Positions 1 to 45,323 are shown, counted from the first letter of the stretch. The stretch is 48,861 nucleotides of DNA from Dehalococcoidia bacterium UBA6808 (GCA_002452695.1 DKFA01000112.1:50832-99692), one strand, 5' to 3'. Notes: a model not told the origin generated them from the letters alone. Numbers and translations: made by a program.

Positions 1-472
1 CCGTGGTGGCGCCGATAAAGGTAACATCCCCATTCTCAACGTAGGGCAGGATGGCATCCTGCTGGCCCTTGTTGAAACGGTGGATTTCGTCGATGAATAA
101 GATCGTCCGTTGCCCGCTGGCCTTTCTCCTGCGCGCGGCTTCATCAATAACCCTGCGCAGGTCGGCCACACCCGCCGTAACTGCGCTGAGCGGCACAAAG
201 TACGATCTGGAGACATTGGCAATGACACGAGCCAGCGTGGTCTTGCCGCTGCCAGGAGGTCCCCATAATATGATGGAGGGGAGCTGGTCTGATTCAATGG
301 CTTTACGCAAGACCTTGCCTTCGCCGATGATATGCCGCTGTCCGACATATTCGTTGAAATTCTGCGGGCGCAGGCGCGCCGCCAGGGGCATGGAAGCGGT
401 TGCCTGCTCCGGCTTTGCCCCGGCGCCCTTGTCACCCTGCAACTCGGGCGAACCGAGGTCGAAAAGTGTCAT
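1..472 (-). CDS. rarA: Replication-associated recombination protein A (RarA/MgsA AAA+ ATPase), N-terminal 157 codons; the 3' end runs off the window
   Basis: Absent from the ORF track because there is no stop in the window. Reverse-complement translation from ATG 472-470 reads MTLFDLG...DQLPSIILWGPPGSGKTTLARVIA (Walker A)...RTILFIDEIHRFNKGQQDAILPYVENGDVTFIGATT (Walker B and the RarA-typical block). The ATG overlaps the stop of the upstream gene (ATGA at 469-472). Confidence 0.9.
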   Translation of the reverse strand, partial: MTLFDLGSPELQGDKGAGAKPEQATASMPLAARLRPQNFNEYVGQRHIIGEGKVLRKAIESDQLPSIILWGPPGSGKTTLARVIANVSRSYFVPLSAVTAGVADLRRVIDEAARRRKASGQRTILFIDEIHRFNKGQQDAILPYVENGDVTFIGATT

Positions 473-1578
473 GGCGTGGGGTTCTCGCGTTTATTAATCT
501 GGGCAGCCACGTTAGAGGCCCGCTCGTAATAGTCTTTGATCTTATCCAGGTAGGTAATGCGGGATGCTATCAGCGTGACAGTAGCAATATCATTGACACC
601 GTAAAAATCGCCCCCTCTGACCTCGCCGTTATTGGTCAGCTCGCGCAGACGGTTGCCCACTGAGCGCGTCATGTTGATATTGGCATTCTTGCTGGGAACA
701 CACAGCAGATACAATGCCTTGCGGGCGTCTTCCAGCCTGCATTCAATGGAAAAATGCGCCAGGGCGGCGCTCATGGCCTCCATGACCTTGACGGTCTCCT
801 CGCCCTTGCTCTCAAAATTGTCGCCCTTCTTGAACAGCGAGAAGCCGGACGAGGGTATCTGCGCCGTACCGTAGCCGATGGCGCTCCAACCGCTGAGCGA
901 CTGGACGATATCGCCAACGCCAATATTCCTGGTTCCCAGGAACCTGGGGTCCACTTTCTCGCTGGCGCGCAGCAAGTCGAAGAACGGCGACACTATCTCG
1001 CGGTTGACCATGTCATTAGAGGCAGCCGACTTGATGCTGGCTTCAGACATCACCTTTTCATTATCGAACAGAAAGACCGCATCGGCCGTCTTGTCGATCG
1101 ATTTCAGACACAGTGCGGTATTATAGACACAAAGCGGTATATTGACCTCCGCCTGTAACGGCAGGACGATAAGAGCATAGAGCGGCTTGTTGACATACCT
1201 GTCCTTGAGTTTGCGGGCCAGGATCGATACGCCGCCGGAGCCGATGCAGCCCGCGCTGGATGACACCAGCAGAAAGGCGTCCGTCTCGAAGAACTCGCCG
1301 GCTTTCATAGTGGCAATGATACGGTCGCCGTTGGCCTTCATCAGTTCAGCGCCGGCTTCAATCTGCTTATTCCCGACGGCGGAAGCGGGGAGCTGGATGG
1401 TCAGCAGCTTTTCGCCGACCTTGCGTAACGCAGACAGAGAAGCCTGGTCATCATTGATGGCATAGGACCTTACCAGCACATCAACGCCGGTCTCAGCTTT
1501 GGCTTTACTTCCCAGTCGCACAAACTCAGCAGCAATATTGCTCCCACAGTCACCGATCCCAATTACTACAAGTTTCAT
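469..1578 (-). CDS. Tubulin/FtsZ-superfamily protein, CetZ-like, with a degenerate tubulin signature motif
   Basis: 369-aa ORF with GGAGG 8 nt upstream of ATG 1578. Family-typical segments are MKLVVIGIGDCGSNIAAEF (T1-loop region), DAFLLVSSSAGCIGSGGVSILARKLKDRY (aligns with GGGTGSG), FLFDNE and C-terminal GEVRGGDF. The family call comes from remembered CetZ/tubulin motifs and has not been searched. Confidence 0.7.
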   Translation of the reverse strand: MKLVVIGIGDCGSNIAAEFVRLGSKAKAETGVDVLVRSYAINDDQASLSALRKVGEKLLTIQLPASAVGNKQIEAGAELMKANGDRIIATMKAGEFFETDAFLLVSSSAGCIGSGGVSILARKLKDRYVNKPLYALIVLPLQAEVNIPLCVYNTALCLKSIDKTADAVFLFDNEKVMSEASIKSAASNDMVNREIVSPFFDLLRASEKVDPRFLGTRNIGVGDIVQSLSGWSAIGYGTAQIPSSGFSLFKKGDNFESKGEETVKVMEAMSAALAHFSIECRLEDARKALYLLCVPSKNANINMTRSVGNRLRELTNNGEVRGGDFYGVNDIATVTLIASRITYLDKIKDYYERASNVAAQINKRENPTP

Positions 1579-1710
1579 TAACTGGACCTCCCGTGGAATA
1601 TCTTAATCTGGGAGACAGTCGCTAAAACTTTACTGACTGAACGATCGCCTGGTCTCATTGAACCTGATATATACCATAACAGATAGGAGGGACTATGGCA
1701 ACCGCCTCTG

Positions 1711-2226
1711 CTACTTATATCTCTTCACCTCAAAACGGTACAGTTGGACCGGCTCAGAACTCATTATTCCTGCCTTTTGCCTGCAGATGGCAATCTGTGT
1801 TTCAACATCGTCCACCCCTTCCAGATCGGGCAGAAGCAGCCCGCGGCGGAAGCCTGCCTGTACGATAACCCCGTACTTCCTGGGATCAAGCAATGCTTGA
1901 TCCTTGATCGGCTCGGGGTGTGTCAGCACATCGACACTATATTCGAGGTCTTGCAGTTCTGATGGTTTGACCGGCGGAAAACGCGGGTCTCCCACAGCAG
2001 ACGCGATGGCGTTTCGCACTATCTCGTCAGCAATATTAGCTTCCATCGGTTCGAAGGTACCAATGCAGCCGCGCAGCTGGCCGCGCTTTTTTAAAGAGAC
2101 GAACACTCCTGCCCTTTCTTTCATCTCGGGTGTCAGGTCTGACGGGTGCAGGACTTTGCCCTCGTTAACAAAGGCCTCAACAGCCTGTTTGGCAAGCTGC
2201 GCCAGTGGATGCATATCTTTTTTCAT
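1711..2226 (-). CDS. AMMECR1-domain protein (AmmeMemoRadiSam system protein A)
   Basis: 171-aa ORF with the hallmark [18 protein letters not shown] and later PDLEGVD...Y. It lies 13 nt downstream of the Memo-like gene. Confidence 0.9.
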
Positions 2227-2239
2227 AAGCGCACCACCA

Positions 2240-3046
2240 TCATTTGCTGATAATTATTCCAGCATAGCCGACCACACTGGAATAATCACCTGACGTATCG
2301 CCGCTGGTCTGGTACTTGACCAGCTCCGCCCTTTCTGCCCCCATTTCTTTAGCTGCCGTGATCAGGCTGATCACAGGAGCATAACCACACATGGTGATCC
2401 CATACCTGGCGATGCGTTTGACCAGCTCGTCGGCATCCAGATCGAGGATAGCATCTATGGCCTGTCTGTCTTTGCTTTTGGCGCTCTCATGCGGCTCATA
2501 GTGCGTCATATCGCTGCTGGCCAGTATCACGGCATCCGATCCGGTCTTTTTCAAAGCCCGCGAAAGCGCAAGCCCGATCTCATTGTAGACTGAGGGATCG
2601 GCCTGCGCCAGTATGATGGGGACGATGGATACATCAGGCTTGAAATACTGCAGAAACGGCAGTTGCACCTCCAGGGAATGCTCATAGAGGTGGGCCACAT
2701 GATCTGCTTCCAGATAGCGGGACTCTCCCAGTATCTCAGAGGCCAAGGCCACATCGATGGGTGTCTCTCCCAGGGGCGTTTTCCACCGGCCGTCCTTCAT
2801 CAGACTGAAAGGTTTGCCCATGCCATGGTGATTTGGGCCAATCAGGATAAATGTGGAAGGAAACTTCAGGATGGAAAATACGGCGCCGGCCACCGGCCCC
2901 GAGTAGACATAGCCGGCGTGAGGACAGACCAGTCCTATGGCCTCTCGTTTTACCTCACCTTTGGGAGTCATGTATTCGATTATTTTACGTAACTCGCCAG
3001 GCCGGTTCGGGTAGAATTGGCCTGCTACTGCTGCTTCCCTGATCAT
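2240..3046 (-). CDS. MEMO1-family protein (AmmeMemoRadiSam system protein B)
   Basis: 268-aa ORF with [23 protein letters not shown] and SSDMTHYE, the His/Asp/Cys metal-site pattern of Memo. Its ATG overlaps the radical SAM stop (ATGA at 3043-3046). Confidence 0.9.
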
Positions 3047-4086
3047 TTCCGCACCTGCGTATTCAGTGTATTCCGGATATTCAATTCAGCGCCACAAACA
3101 GCGCAATTTGCGCCTTTAAGGGCCTTTATCCTGGTATGGTAGCCGGTCCTTTCAATTACCTGCGTGCCACAATTGTAGCACACCGTGTTCTCATAAGAAT
3201 GGCCGGGCACATTGCCCAGGTAGACAAAGCGCAACCCTGCCTCTTTACCCAGCGAGACAGCCTTCTCAAGCGTTGCAATGGGAGTGGGCGGCAAATGACT
3301 GAACTCATGGTGTGGATAGAATCGCGTGACATGCCAGGGCGTCAGTTCGCCCAGCTTTTCTCTGATCCACATGGCGATGTCCGAAAGCTGGGCATCATCA
3401 TCGTTAACCGATGGAATAACGTTGGTGACAACCTCGACATGCATATTCCACTTATGCCTGGCCCGTTCCGCTGTTTCCAGTATTCCCCTCCAGCCCTTGA
3501 CCTTCGCCAGCTTACGGTACACCCCGTCGGTAAAGCCCTTGATATCCACCCGCCAGGCATCCAGGTAAGGCCCAATTACATCAAGGGCTTCCGCTGTCAT
3601 AAAGCCGTTGGTAACATAAACGGTATATAGCCCCTGGCGGCGCGCCAGTTTGGCAGTATCCAATGTATATTCGAACCAGACGGTCGGTTCATTGTACGTC
3701 CAGGCCAGCCCGGCGCAATGCTGCTGCTCTGCCAGCTTGACCGCCTGCTCCGGGCTGATAATATCCAAGCTGCGCTGTATTTCAGCCGGATTTTCCACAC
3801 AGGCGATCTGCCAGTTCTGGCAATGGGCACAATGGAAATTGCAGCCGACCGTGCCAAAAGACAACACTGTAGTGCCGGGGAAAAAGTGAAATAACGGTTT
3901 TTTCTCGATCGGGTCCGCAGCCAGCGAGGAAACCCTGGCGTAGTTGAGCGGGATTACGCGGCCATCTTCGTTGCCCCGGACACCGCATACGCCGGTCTTG
4001 CCCGGGTTTATCACACAGCGCCACAGGCAGACATTGCAGCGTACCCGGTTACCAGATAGTTTATCGTAAAGAAGCGCCTCCTCCAT
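3043..4086 (-). CDS. AmmeMemoRadiSam system radical SAM enzyme (PFL-activase-like)
   Basis: Carries the CNFHCAHCQNW (CX3CX2C) radical SAM cluster motif. Extra Cys pairs occur at the N-terminus (CNVCLWRC) and C-terminus (CYNCG...CAVCG). I prefer ATG 4086 (MEEALLYDK), preceded by GGAGAGGGG, over the track's TTG at 4104. Confidence 0.88.
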   Translation of the reverse strand: MEEALLYDKLSGNRVRCNVCLWRCVINPGKTGVCGVRGNEDGRVIPLNYARVSSLAADPIEKKPLFHFFPGTTVLSFGTVGCNFHCAHCQNWQIACVENPAEIQRSLDIISPEQAVKLAEQQHCAGLAWTYNEPTVWFEYTLDTAKLARRQGLYTVYVTNGFMTAEALDVIGPYLDAWRVDIKGFTDGVYRKLAKVKGWRGILETAERARHKWNMHVEVVTNVIPSVNDDDAQLSDIAMWIREKLGELTPWHVTRFYPHHEFSHLPPTPIATLEKAVSLGKEAGLRFVYLGNVPGHSYENTVCYNCGTQVIERTGYHTRIKALKGANCAVCGAELNIRNTLNTQVRK

Positions 4087-4264
4087 ATAAGCCCCTCTCC
4101 ACAATTATAACACGCCAAAGACAACGGGGTACTGACAACCTGAAAAACCGCTCCACCATCACTTATGAATAATAGTCCCGGATAGACAGCGCTTTAATTA
4201 TTCTGTGAAATATAAAAGCATGGCAGTTCGAGCCGCTTCAAACAAGAAAATATGTCTTTTAGCT

Positions 4265-4294
4265 TTGACATAAAATTCGTCATTCTGTTACAAT
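4265..4294 (+). promoter_or_regulatory. Sigma-70-type promoter for fbp: TTGACA, 18 nt, TACAAT
   Basis: TTGACA at 4265-4270 and TACAAT at 4289-4294, in an AT-rich 315-bp divergent intergenic region. This implies a 5' leader of roughly 120 nt before ATG 4420. Confidence 0.55.
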
Positions 4295-4419
4295 TTAACG
4301 CTGACGTATCAGTAAATTTTAGCGCCTGATCAATTGATTTGGACTTCTCATGCCGAATAGCGATTCATATATTCCGGGTACAGGCAGGGTACTGAAATAT
4401 TCATTAGCAAGGAGGTATT

Positions 4420-5514
4420 ATGAAAGTCACACTAAGCGTTATCAAAGCTGACGTCGGCGGTTGGGTCGGTCATTGCAGCATGCATCCCGACCTGATTGCT
4501 GCCGGCGACTCCGCACTGGCCAAGGCCAAGAAAGCCGGCCTGATCATCGATTACCACGTAACCCGCTGTGGCGATGATCTGCAGTTTATCATGACCCATA
4601 CCAATGGTACAGATAATAGAGAGATCCACGAGCTGGCCTGGAATACATTCAAAACCTGCACCGGGATAGCTAAGAAACTTAAGCTGCACGGAGCCGGACA
4701 GGACCTGCTCGCCGACGCCTTTTCGGGCAACGTAAAGGGACAGGGACCCGGCGTGGCTGAGATGGATATCGACGAGCGGGAAGCCGAGCCTGTTGTCATC
4801 TTCATGGCTGACAAGACGGCCTCCGGCGCCTGGAACCTGCCTCTCTACCACATATTCAGCGATCCCTTTAACACGATCGGCCTGGTTATTTCATCCAACA
4901 TGCACAAAGGCTTTCTGTTCGAGGTTCATGATGTAAAAGAAAGCAAGAAGATCATATTTAAATGTCCCGAGGAAACCTATGACATGCTGGTCTTCATCGG
5001 CGCCCCATCCAGGTATACGGTCAAGGCTGTTTATTCCCGCGAGACCGGTGAGATCGCCGCCAGTTCATCGACGCAAAAGCTATCCCTGATAGCAGGCCGC
5101 TATGTAGGCAAGGATGACCCTGTTTGCATCGTCAGGGCCCAGGGTATTTTCCCCGCCGTGGGTGAAGTGCTTGAACCATTTGCAAGGCCCCATATTGTGG
5201 AAGGCTGGATGCGCGGCTCGCACAACGGCCCGCTCATGCCGGTAGCAGTCAAGGAAAGCAATCCAACACGTTTCGACGGCCCGCCCAGGGTTATAGCAGC
5301 TGGTTTCCAACTGGCTGAAGGTCGCCTGGTCGGCCCGGTGGACATGTTCGACGATCCTGCCTTTAACAACGCCAGACAGGCCGCCCTCAACATGGCCGAC
5401 ATGCTCAGGCGGCACGGCCCCTTCGAACCACACAGGCTGCCTCTGGAAGAGATGGAATACACTACCATGCCGCAGGTCATGCAAAAGCTGCGCCGCAGGT
5501 TCGAGAAGATATAG
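4420..5514 (+). CDS. fbp: Fructose-1,6-bisphosphate aldolase/phosphatase (class V FBPase, archaeal type)
   Basis: 364-aa ORF with AGGAGG upstream. The N-terminus MKVTLSVIKADVGGWVGHCSMHPD matches the family N-terminus (..SVIKADIGS.aGH...HP), and the length is typical. Confidence 0.9.
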   Translation: MKVTLSVIKADVGGWVGHCSMHPDLIAAGDSALAKAKKAGLIIDYHVTRCGDDLQFIMTHTNGTDNREIHELAWNTFKTCTGIAKKLKLHGAGQDLLADAFSGNVKGQGPGVAEMDIDEREAEPVVIFMADKTASGAWNLPLYHIFSDPFNTIGLVISSNMHKGFLFEVHDVKESKKIIFKCPEETYDMLVFIGAPSRYTVKAVYSRETGEIAASSSTQKLSLIAGRYVGKDDPVCIVRAQGIFPAVGEVLEPFARPHIVEGWMRGSHNGPLMPVAVKESNPTRFDGPPRVIAAGFQLAEGRLVGPVDMFDDPAFNNARQAALNMADMLRRHGPFEPHRLPLEEMEYTTMPQVMQKLRRRFEKI

Positions 5515-5521
5515 TCGGATT

Positions 5522-6127
5522 ATGTCCGGGTTACTGGTTGCCACAACCAATCGCGGCAAGGTCGCCGAATACAGGCATCTGCTGGAAGGATTGAAGGTTG
5601 ATCTTATAACCCTGGATGAGGCAGGCATCAGCCAGGAAGCTGACGAGAGCTTCCAAACATTTGAGGAGAATGCGCGCTCCAAGGCCATGTTCTATGCCGG
5701 CCTGAGCGGGCTTCCGACTTTGGCCGACGATTCGGGCCTGGAAGTTGATGCGCTGGGTGGGGAGCCGGGTGTCAGATCTTCACGTTATGCAGGCGATCAT
5801 GCCACCGACAGCGACCGGGTCAATTTCCTGCTTGAAAAGCTGAAGGGCGTCCCCCTGGAAAAAAGACAGGCCAGGTTCAAATGCGTTATTGCTATCGCAT
5901 CCCCCGGCGGAGATGTCAAAACTGTCAGCGGTGAATGTGAGGGTATCATAGATGTGGAGCCTCGCGGAAATAACGGCTTCGGCTATGATCCCATCTTTTA
6001 TCTGCCTCAATATGGCAGGACCATCGCAGAGCTCAGCCCAGAGCTTAAGAACGAGATCAGCCATCGCGGCCGGGCGGCACATAAAGCACGTGAGGTGCTG
6101 GCCGCGCTGCTGGCTGGAAAAAGTTAG
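5522..6127 (+). CDS. rdgB: Non-canonical purine NTP pyrophosphatase (RdgB/HAM1 family)
   Basis: Carries VATTNRGKVAEY, ADDSGLEVDALGGEPGVRSSRY, FGYDPIF and KNEISHRGRA. It starts 7 nt after the fbp stop. Confidence 0.92.
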   Translation: MSGLLVATTNRGKVAEYRHLLEGLKVDLITLDEAGISQEADESFQTFEENARSKAMFYAGLSGLPTLADDSGLEVDALGGEPGVRSSRYAGDHATDSDRVNFLLEKLKGVPLEKRQARFKCVIAIASPGGDVKTVSGECEGIIDVEPRGNNGFGYDPIFYLPQYGRTIAELSPELKNEISHRGRAAHKAREVLAALLAGKS

Positions 6128-43649: not shown

Positions 43650-45323
43650 ATGACTTCACAGGTCTTCTACCGCAAATGGCGGCCTCAGACATTCTCAGAA
43701 GTAGCCGGCCAGGAACATGTTGTGCAGACCCTGCGCAATGCCGTTAAGAGCAACCGCATTGCTCATGCCTACCTGTTCTGCGGCCCGCGCGGCTCAGGCA
43801 AAACATCCACTGCACGCATCCTCGCCAAGGCAGTCAACTGCCAGTCTCCCATCGAGGGTGAGCCCTGCAATAATTGCGATTCCTGCCTGGCCATCAACAG
43901 GGGCAACGCCATTGATATCATTGAGATCGACGAGGCCAGCAACCGCGGCATCGATGATATGAACGACCTTAAGGAGCGTGTCAACTACGCCCCCAACATC
44001 CTGCGTTACAAGGTCTACATCATCGACGAGGTACATATGATTACCAGGGAGGGCGCCAACGCCTTCCTGAAGACCCTGGAAGAACCCCCTCCGCATGTTA
44101 TTTTCATACTGGCTACCACTGACCCGCACAAGATCATTTCGACCATCACTTCGCGCTGCCAGCGTTTCGATTTCCACCGCCTTTCCTCGGCTGCCGTCAT
44201 CTCCCGCCTGTCGCACATCTGCAGCCAGGAAGGAGTGAAGGTCGATCCCGAAGCCCTTAAACTGATCGCCAAGGTGACCACCGGCAGCCTGCGTGACGCC
44301 ACCAACCTGCTTGAGCAGCTCATTACATATTACGGCGCAGATATCCAGATGGCACAGGCGCAGGCTATGCTGGGCATCAGCGGGGACCTGCGCATCCGCG
44401 AGCTGGCCGGCCATATCATCAACAGGGATGTTTCCTCCGGACTCAAGGTGATCAATGCCGTGGCATCCGAGGGACTCGACCTGCGGCAGTTCAACAGGGA
44501 ACTGGTGGACTACCTGCGCCAGTTGCTCCTGGCCAGGTCCGGCTCAGCCGATATGATCGATGCCACGGCCGACGACCTCGCTGAGATGCAAAGGGCAGCG
44601 GGCGGCGCCACGCTTGATTACCTGCTTAACACGGTCAAGCTTTTCAGCGCTGTGGACATGCGCATGGATACCTACTCGTCACTGCCGCTGGAGCTCGCCC
44701 TGGTCGAGAGCGTCATCTCCGCCAATGGCAAAGAAAAGGCGACCGAACCGGCGCCGCGCAGCGACTGGGGCACACGCAGCGCTTCCACCCCCTATAAGGC
44801 CACCAGGCCGGCAGAAGCAGCACGCCCGGCCAGCCTGGTAAGCAAACCTGCCGTAAATCAGTCCAGTTTAGCGCCTGCACAGCAAGCCGAACTGGCAGAA
44901 CCTGCTGAAGAAGGTGAGACCACTCTTGGCGCTCCGCTCAAGATGGAAAACCCCGCCGACCTGGATTATATCAAGCAGCACTGGAAGTTCTTTATTAACT
45001 CTATGCGCGGCGAGGGTTCGGGCGGTAACCTGGATGCCCGCCTGCGCCATGCCTGCGAACCGGTTGAGATCAAAGAAGGCGTTCTGGTGCTGGGCTTTTT
45101 TCACGAGTTCCACAAGAACTATATAGATAACCGCAAATACCTTCATCTGATTGAAAAAAAGCTTAAGGAAGTCTTCGGGCATTCCTATACAGTCAACTGC
45201 GTATTGATTCCGCAGGGGCAGAAAACGGAGCTTAAACCGACCAGCAGCAACCATCTGGTCGAAGCTGCCCTGAGCATGGGCGCGCGGATTGTCGAAGAAA
45301 ACGCTGATACGGAGGAAAAATGA
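43650..45323 (+). CDS. dnaX: DNA polymerase III subunit gamma/tau
   Basis: YRKWRPQTFSEVAGQEHV, GPRGSGKTSTARILAKAVNC, Zn-module cysteines (CNNCDSC), IIDEVHM and SRCQRF. Confidence 0.96.
   Translation: MTSQVFYRKWRPQTFSEVAGQEHVVQTLRNAVKSNRIAHAYLFCGPRGSGKTSTARILAKAVNCQSPIEGEPCNNCDSCLAINRGNAIDIIEIDEASNRGIDDMNDLKERVNYAPNILRYKVYIIDEVHMITREGANAFLKTLEEPPPHVIFILATTDPHKIISTITSRCQRFDFHRLSSAAVISRLSHICSQEGVKVDPEALKLIAKVTTGSLRDATNLLEQLITYYGADIQMAQAQAMLGISGDLRIRELAGHIINRDVSSGLKVINAVASEGLDLRQFNRELVDYLRQLLLARSGSADMIDATADDLAEMQRAAGGATLDYLLNTVKLFSAVDMRMDTYSSLPLELALVESVISANGKEKATEPAPRSDWGTRSASTPYKATRPAEAARPASLVSKPAVNQSSLAPAQQAELAEPAEEGETTLGAPLKMENPADLDYIKQHWKFFINSMRGEGSGGNLDARLRHACEPVEIKEGVLVLGFFHEFHKNYIDNRKYLHLIEKKLKEVFGHSYTVNCVLIPQGQKTELKPTSSNHLVEAALSMGARIVEENADTEEK

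Follow-up and report, generated by a model that had tools for sequence, protein, structure and literature searches.

A degenerate CetZ-like tubulin homologue between the AmmeMemoRadiSam genes and rarA in one Dehalococcoidia clade

The 48,861-nt stretch of the Dehalococcoidia bacterium UBA6808 genome analysed here (GCA_002452695.1 DKFA01000112.1:50832-99692; hereafter the window) begins with a run of minus-strand genes in which the three components of the AmmeMemoRadiSam system (radical SAM, Memo and AMMECR1; the triad) precede a gene for a CetZ-like tubulin homologue and then rarA. The full block is made up of six co-oriented genes, the last being an alpha/beta hydrolase gene that lies beyond the window edge, and the link between tubulin gene and triad is limited to one monophyletic Dehalococcoidia clade. 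We regard it as moderately probable that this adjacency reflects shared regulation of housekeeping genes, a reading that assumes no enzyme–substrate relation between the neighbours.

The original prediction, drawn from the window sequence, had placed five open reading frames (ORFs) on the minus strand and raised the possibility that the triad modifies or regulates a cytoskeletal filament; the coordinates of all five ORFs and their junctions are confirmed, with junction lengths and ATGA overlaps taken straight from the sequence. The gene identities are upheld as well. The radical SAM, Memo-like and AMMECR1-like proteins score above the curated cut-offs of TIGR04337 (309.9 bits, cut-off 220), TIGR04336 (321.7 bits, cut-off 26) and TIGR04335 (144.3 bits, cut-off 99), respectively, and also match PF04055, PF01875 (1e-81) and PF01871 (2.5e-49); scoring above these cut-offs and co-localised, they are AmmeMemoRadiSam genes. 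In translation, the radical SAM protein carries the cluster motif CxxxCxxC as CNFHCAHC, and its next-best profile matches are glycyl-radical-enzyme activases. The MEMO1 stretches PHAGY, GPNHH, SSDxxH and CG align with conserved residues of the Memo-like protein; we take these stretches to be the MEMO1 metal site (presumably H49, H81, D189, H192 and C244 in human numbering). The AMMECR1-like protein contains the LRGCIG motif and has PH0010 and MM0484 as relatives in the PDB. The encoded part of RarA matches PRK13341-type models (8e-62) and RuvB_N/AAA domains, with Walker A (GPPGSGKTT) and Walker B (LFIDEIH) visible in its N terminus, as expected of a RarA/MgsA-type AAA+ protein; orthologues of 456–460 aa comprise RuvB_N, AAA, AAA_assoc_2 and MgsA_C domains, the C-terminal part of the window copy falling outside the window.

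Conservation of the block and the AMMECR1–rarA junction

The closest database relatives of the window carry the label Dehalococcoidia bacterium, which places it in an uncultured member of that class. With the CetZ-like protein as anchor, a scan covering a single genome of each species returned 80 loci labelled nearly all as Dehalococcoidia or other Chloroflexota, with 3 labelled Deltaproteobacteria. The orthologous loci (L001–L027, L042 and L080) represent 29 species-level genomes with CetZ-like identities of 44–88%, and in all of them the order and strand are kept: radical SAM, Memo or LigB, AMMECR1, CetZ-like. AMMECR1 stands directly 5′ of the CetZ-like gene in 28 of the 28 orthologous loci with enough flank, and rarA comes next in every one with enough downstream flank, L027 excepted. 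In relatives of the window the sixth gene, encoding an alpha/beta hydrolase of 212–221 aa, overlaps the rarA stop by 4 nt, and a convergent gene then closes the block; the best NCBIfam match of one such hydrolase (L085:12486-13124) is to the model for SglT, a motility protein of type IV pili (1e-16), far under the cut-off. What surrounds the block varies by subgroup, from divergent FBPase_3/Ham1 genes in the subgroup of the window to CoaE/HGD-D in L081 and ferredoxin-like (Fer4) and ATP-binding cassette (ABC) transporter genes in L083.

Junctions within the block are tight even among distant members. In the group with 44–54% CetZ-like identity, the gap from AMMECR1 to the CetZ-like gene is −4 to +15 nt and that from the CetZ-like gene to rarA mostly −14 to +12 nt. 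Over the loci as a whole, both the CetZ-like/rarA and the rarA/hydrolase junctions are mostly 4-nt overlaps. Such gene order, kept with abutting genes through this much divergence and turnover of flanks, is the behaviour of an operon. Since the order survives both, neighbouring genes abut or overlap, and a putative extended −10 promoter, itself conserved, stands 5′ of the radical SAM gene, the block is likely to be an operon and its genes are likely to be co-transcribed; the genes are co-oriented, their junctions are short or overlapping across divergent genomes, and no internal terminator is seen. The original prediction had made its case depend on conservation past very close relatives, and such conservation is what we find: CetZ-like identity falls to 44%, synonymous divergence is saturated, the flanks are rearranged and Memo has been swapped for LigB.

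That swap affects the middle gene of the triad, which in most deep-branching loci encodes a 268-aa LigB-type (PF02900) class III extradiol-dioxygenase homologue and not Memo, the two proteins belonging to one superfamily. The replacement is seen in L021–L024, L042 and L080–L084 (for example, L021:8315-9121) and covers about half of the clade's diversity, which weakens the analogy with animal Memo1 and microtubules that the original prediction had drawn. In L027 (7820-9136) the LigB-type and AMMECR1 genes are fused and the block has no rarA, with the CetZ-like and hydrolase genes retained. Among the 150 best AMMECR1 cluster representatives, too, LigB or Memo fused to AMMECR1 is more common than any other architecture. 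No fusion of AMMECR1 to tubulin or RarA was found in this set, judged by length, since stand-alone or LigB/Memo-fused forms fit all lengths and none is long enough for an extra tubulin or RarA domain; the seven representatives that were domain-scanned hold LigB, Memo and AMMECR1 only.

The reach of the association was followed in metagenomes by a scan anchored on a consensus AMMECR1, chosen to avoid retrieving the nearest kin of the window alone; it gave 80 loci, whose gene content was probed with tblastn. On similarity, as opposed to marker genes, 33 of these form a Dehalococcoidia-like class (radical SAM 61–69% identical; order radical SAM, Memo/LigB, AMMECR1) and 19 form a second class that we take as other lineages (radical SAM 34–43% identical; order LigB, AMMECR1, radical SAM). 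Of the 17 Dehalococcoidia-like loci with at least 3 kb of downstream flank, 13 show rarA no more than 3 kb away, and no second-class locus (0/19) has it near the triad. A tubulin gene occupies the position between AMMECR1 and rarA in a single Dehalococcoidia-like locus (L156; 1/33) and in none of the second class (0/19); none was found among the other 28 AMMECR1-anchored loci, which are mostly short contigs or AMMECR1 alone. Of the neighbours that the original prediction proposed to count around the triad, rarA is thus a frequent one in the Dehalococcoidia-like class and absent in the second, and a tubulin gene is frequent in neither.

Other loci of the Dehalococcoidia-like class have either about 30–150 nt or unrelated cargo between AMMECR1 and rarA. 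Such cargo (in L099, L101, L154, L139, L102, L130, L147, L103 and L114) comprises RHH/ParE toxin–antitoxin pairs, an N6_N4 DNA methylase with a partner ORF, DndB with a GIY-YIG protein, nitroreductases, a glyoxalase-family protein, a repeat protein and proteins of no assigned family. Triad and rarA are directly adjacent in L078, L090, L119, L140, L150 and L151; in the first two, AMMECR1 leads directly into rarA with neither Memo/LigB nor a tubulin gene, and L090 (6350-6748) has an IS200-type Y1 transposase between radical SAM and AMMECR1. Loci without the tubulin gene (L101 and L154) likewise have the hydrolase gene 3′ of rarA. The AMMECR1–rarA junction is a permissive slot of which the tubulin gene is a stable occupant in one lineage only, and the triad-then-rarA order looks ancestral, an old synteny of a broad Dehalococcoidia group. 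We infer that this group started from triad-then-rarA with a junction tolerating insertions, and that a copy from an old duplication among the chromosomal CetZ genes would have been fixed in the slot in one lineage.

These counts also bear on the idea that the link that matters is the one between the triad and RarA, for instance base modification or repair coupled to a replication-fork ATPase, the CetZ-like gene being a passenger in the slot. Memo–AMMECR1 contexts have reportedly been tied to nucleotide-base modification, and both the 13 of 17 Dehalococcoidia-like loci with rarA and the six loci with direct adjacency agree with it. We nevertheless judge it very unlikely: rarA is near the triad in none of the 19 second-class loci, mobile or defence-type cargo is tolerated in between, and in L027 it is rarA that is gone from the block and the CetZ-like gene that stays.

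A triad-linked CetZ paralogue without the canonical GTP signature

The embedded protein is a CetZ homologue by sequence and by fold, as had been proposed. It matches PF00091 (Tubulin, 78.6 bits) and PF21011 (CetZ_C, 43.6 bits), both over their cut-offs; its best sequence match in the PDB is Haloferax volcanii CetZ1 (4B46, 1e-27); and a Foldseek search with its AlphaFold2 model (mean predicted local distance difference test score, pLDDT, 83) places CetZ1 (4B46) and CetZ2 (4B45) at the top, with template modelling (TM) scores of 0.78–0.89. The window holds no further tubulin-family genes that we could find. A mobile or plasmid origin of the TubZ/PhuZ kind was considered and rejected, the nearest relatives being chromosomal Dehalococcoidia CetZ paralogues and archaeal CetZ.

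The tubulin signature GGGTG[ST]G of loop T4 is absent from the window protein: its G-box reads AGCIGSG against GGGTGSG, its T1 loop GDCG against GQCG and its T7 loop GVGD against DAGD. The same substitutions separate all triad-linked copies from all unlinked ones. In T1, 34/34 linked copies have GxGDCG and 81/81 unlinked copies GxGQCG, compared with GFGQAG in H. volcanii CetZ1; in T4, the linked copies read [AS]xG[CFSNY][VILF]GSGG (34/34) and the unlinked ones GGTGSG (81/81), compared with GGGTGSG in CetZ1; and in T7, G[VI]GD (34/34) faces DAGD (81/81), with DSSE in CetZ1. Motif degeneration thus marks every linked copy and 0 of 81 free copies, and database cluster representatives divide likewise into 82 degenerate and 30 canonical. 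D223, which aligns with the catalytic E218 of CetZ1, is invariant, and the preceding Asp (D215 in CetZ1) is Gly throughout the linked clade. Because signature, T1 and T7 residues are substituted, nucleotide binding or hydrolysis is probably altered in these proteins, and the embedded paralogue may have a specialised, non-canonical cytoskeletal or scaffold role.

In a neighbour-joining tree, the triad-linked copies form a single clade on longer branches, sister to the canonical Dehalococcoidia paralogues. The latter (P0087–P0120) terminate in K-x-[LI]-P-[ST]-L-[LM], a peptide that resembles the FtsZ C-terminal anchor peptide; the linked clade (P0001–P0086) is without it, several members ending in lysine-rich tails (for example, KKRKKKPS). 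Of the loci anchored on canonical paralogues, 50/51 have no triad gene within their flank, and in the remaining one (L078) a triad gene lies on the opposite strand at a distance of 3.6 kb. The canonical 393-aa paralogue has its own conserved neighbourhood (L081:15021-19577, L083:14903-19411 and L090:11367-14516), made up of a 455–457-aa protein with only a weak Terminase_6C match, a TIG/Big-domain protein of about 600 aa and rho.

Despite these losses, the ratio of non-synonymous to synonymous substitution (dN/dS) is 0.066 for the CetZ-like gene and 0.067 for rarA, values that are approximate because dS, at about 1.8 even in the close subgroup, is saturated. The CetZ-like gene thus appears functional, and purifying selection seems to act on it as strongly as on RarA. 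A pseudogene was rejected on this ratio and on the intact ORFs. The gene is frameshifted in L025 and L080, which we read as assembly errors because both are MFD-labelled assemblies and because in L025 the neighbouring Ham1 and rarA genes are broken too.

A protein that has lost canonical GTP-pocket residues and yet is strongly constrained fits a new role, and one such role would be direct coupling, in which the degenerate paralogue serves as a dedicated AmmeMemoRadiSam partner: a substrate for the activase-like radical SAM protein, a scaffold for the enzymes or a filament regulated by the product of the triad. Every member of the degenerate clade with enough flank lies directly 3′ of AMMECR1 (28/28 genome loci and L156), the adjacency outlasts both the loss of rarA in L027 and the replacement of Memo by LigB, and the glycyl-radical-enzyme activases, which among characterised enzymes are most closely related to the radical SAM protein, act on proteins. 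Set against this, the triad is widespread without a tubulin neighbour, in the second class as in nearly all of the Dehalococcoidia-like class, and without tubulin fusions among the AMMECR1 representatives; the slot takes unrelated cargo; the linked clade has no residue or motif of its own that points to a modification site; and the paralogue may simply have stayed where it first formed. We therefore consider direct coupling quite unlikely. For the stricter proposal that the GTP-pocket-degenerate paralogue is an obligate AmmeMemoRadiSam partner in this one clade, as protein substrate, scaffold or product-controlled filament, we see a slight chance, and any chemical or physical link between triad and tubulin homologue is speculative.

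Gene layout and candidate promoters

Table 1. Genes and promoter-like elements at the start of the window.
Feature	Position	Strand	Details
Radical SAM gene	3043-4086	minus	347 aa from ATG 4086; ATGA overlap with Memo gene at 3046-3043
Memo-like gene	2240-3046	minus	268 aa; 13 nt, then AMMECR1 gene
AMMECR1-like gene	1711-2226	minus	171 aa; 132 nt (1579-1710), then CetZ-like gene
CetZ-like gene	469-1578	minus	369 aa; ATGA overlap with rarA at 472-469
rarA, 5′ part	1-472	minus	157 N-terminal residues; gene cut by window edge
Extended −10 promoter-like box TGtTATAAT	4104-4112	minus	about 18–20 nt 5′ of radical SAM ATG
Promoter-like element TTGCCA-17 nt-TGtTATGGT	1673-1701	minus	5′ end of the 132-nt AMMECR1/CetZ-like spacer

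The longest ORF of the radical SAM gene begins at TTG 4104. This TTG falls within a TATAAT box that is conserved, and homologues start at the position matching ATG 4086; we therefore take ATG 4086 as the start, in agreement with the original prediction. The box itself belongs to an extended −10 sequence, gTGcTATAATt, that is conserved in 18/18 aligned clade loci, including the distant L020 and L026, with a GAGGA Shine–Dalgarno sequence downstream of it, and we propose it (4112-4104) as the candidate primary promoter of the block.

A second promoter-like element lies at the start of the AMMECR1/CetZ-like spacer in the subgroup of the window (identity of 77% or more), with the consensus GGTTGCCAta-N8-TATCTGTTAtGGTATATAtCA. 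It is kept in 19 non-identical spacers of this subgroup, the remaining spacer being variable or absent; it occurs once in the window, and in the loci it is found at the AMMECR1/CetZ-like junction only. In relatives with a short gap, about 8 nt separate the end of the element from the ATG and no Shine–Dalgarno sequence is present, which suggests a near-leaderless transcript. Deep-branching members, with their gap of −4 to +15 nt, lack it. The original prediction had allowed for a separate promoter in the 132-nt gap and had seen no obvious terminator there; the conserved TTGCCA-17-TGtTATGGT element (1701-1673) is a candidate for the former, and a terminator scan detected no terminator-like hairpin in any junction of the block, this gap included. 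A riboswitch or attenuator in the spacer was also considered and dropped, its folding (z = −1.8) not being distinctive. Neither Rfam families (positions 1-4600 at permissive thresholds, the whole window at gathering thresholds) nor tRNA genes were found.

One promoter for the whole block, with a secondary promoter for the CetZ-like, rarA and hydrolase genes that arose in the window's subgroup, is the most likely arrangement suggested by these sequences. The extended −10 sequence before radical SAM would drive the block, and in deep-branching members the abutting or overlapping genes would form a single operon. In the subgroup of the window, because a second promoter-like element stands just past the AMMECR1 stop with no terminator after it, the CetZ-like, rarA and hydrolase genes are probably transcribed both by read-through and separately.

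The same element could be taken to mean that the genes are neighbours by descent only, with triad, CetZ-like gene and rarA independently transcribed and functionally unrelated, and with limited rearrangement in one order accounting for their proximity. Such a historical accident would sit well with the conserved promoter-like sequence 5′ of the CetZ-like gene, with the varied insertions that related lineages carry at the AMMECR1–rarA junction, and with the absence of the association outside one clade. We hold it to be unlikely, however, since both flanks have been reshuffled at least three times and the block is intact, the −4 to +15-nt gaps and 4-nt overlaps of deep-branching members exclude separate intergenic promoters, and no terminator-like site separates the genes.

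The adjacency would then most likely mean that housekeeping genes are regulated together in a wall-less bacterium bearing a surface layer (S-layer). Several points weigh against this reading. The operon and its two promoters are read from sequence; the spacer element could make the CetZ-like, rarA and hydrolase genes a separate unit in the window's subgroup; the assignment of metagenome loci to lineages comes from similarity; and the strength of selection was estimated at saturated dS. Moreover, the paralogue stays beside AMMECR1 despite the loss of rarA in L027 and the replacement of Memo, so co-regulation only may understate the link, and strict retention of the CetZ-like gene next to AMMECR1 is also what direct functional dependence on the triad predicts.

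Two further observations concern the rest of the window. Divergent from the block, positions 4420-6127 (plus strand) encode an FBPase_3-family fructose-1,6-bisphosphate aldolase/phosphatase and a Ham1/RdgB nucleoside triphosphate (NTP) pyrophosphatase, a pair retained with the block only in the window's close subgroup. At 43650-45323 (plus strand), a 557-aa ORF has a weak RarA-like AAA+ match (28% identity over 226 residues) and is probably another clamp-loader-type ATPase.

Relation to known systems and biological meaning

The three adjacent, co-oriented genes resemble other AmmeMemoRadiSam systems, and the LigB–AMMECR1 and Memo–AMMECR1 fusions in relatives match the known modularity. They differ in continuing, on the same strand, into a tubulin-superfamily gene, rarA and a hydrolase gene, whereas no tubulin gene or rarA was found by second-class triads. 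With archaeal CetZ (H. volcanii CetZ1 and CetZ2), the CetZ-like protein shares both domains, the best sequence and fold match and the equivalent of E218, kept as D223. It differs in its bacterial host, in the AGCIGSG loop, in the change from Gln to Asp in T1 and from the first Asp to Gly in T7, and in having no conserved C-terminal peptide. The canonical Dehalococcoidia CetZ paralogues occur in the same class of organisms with the same domain architecture and 35–42% identity, but keep GGTGSG, GQCG, DAGD and the C-terminal peptide and lie away from the triad, often as tandem pairs or beside the TIG/Big-domain protein and rho. RarA resembles RarA/MgsA/WRNIP1 in its N-terminal AAA+ domain with Walker A and B motifs and, in the orthologues, AAA_assoc_2 and MgsA_C; its apparent translational coupling to a tubulin homologue is not described in the literature that we found.

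The triad, the CetZ-like proteins of Dehalococcoidia and RarA are each already known separately. Santana-Molina et al. 2023 (PMC9871819) reported the CetZ-like proteins of Dehalococcoidia without referring to Memo, AMMECR1 or radical SAM. In the literature searched, AmmeMemoRadiSam turns up solely as an annotation label, no paper treats AMMECR1 and CetZ together, and the RarA/MgsA/WRNIP1 papers found are without AMMECR1. A probable lineage-specific operon joining the triad, a CetZ-like gene and rarA, together with a degenerate, triad-locked CetZ clade, is a real arrangement and apparently undescribed in that literature. Dehalococcoidales keep ftsA and ftsZ and are without peptidoglycan genes (PMC10608941), and an archaeal-style CetZ cytoskeleton is therefore plausible in them.

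If the adjacency reflects shared regulation only, the result is tidy but modest comparative genomics. AmmeMemoRadiSam has human relatives (MEMO1 and AMMECR1) and no known substrate, and this lineage gives a concrete set of proteins for co-expression; were the obligate-partner proposal true, the CetZ-like paralogue would be the first experimentally tractable partner for a trio conserved from archaea to humans. The linked clade itself is a natural case of a tubulin-superfamily protein that is without the canonical GTP signature and apparently under strong selection, and its occurrence in wall-less bacteria with several CetZ-like genes bears on the diversification of bacterial cytoskeletons.

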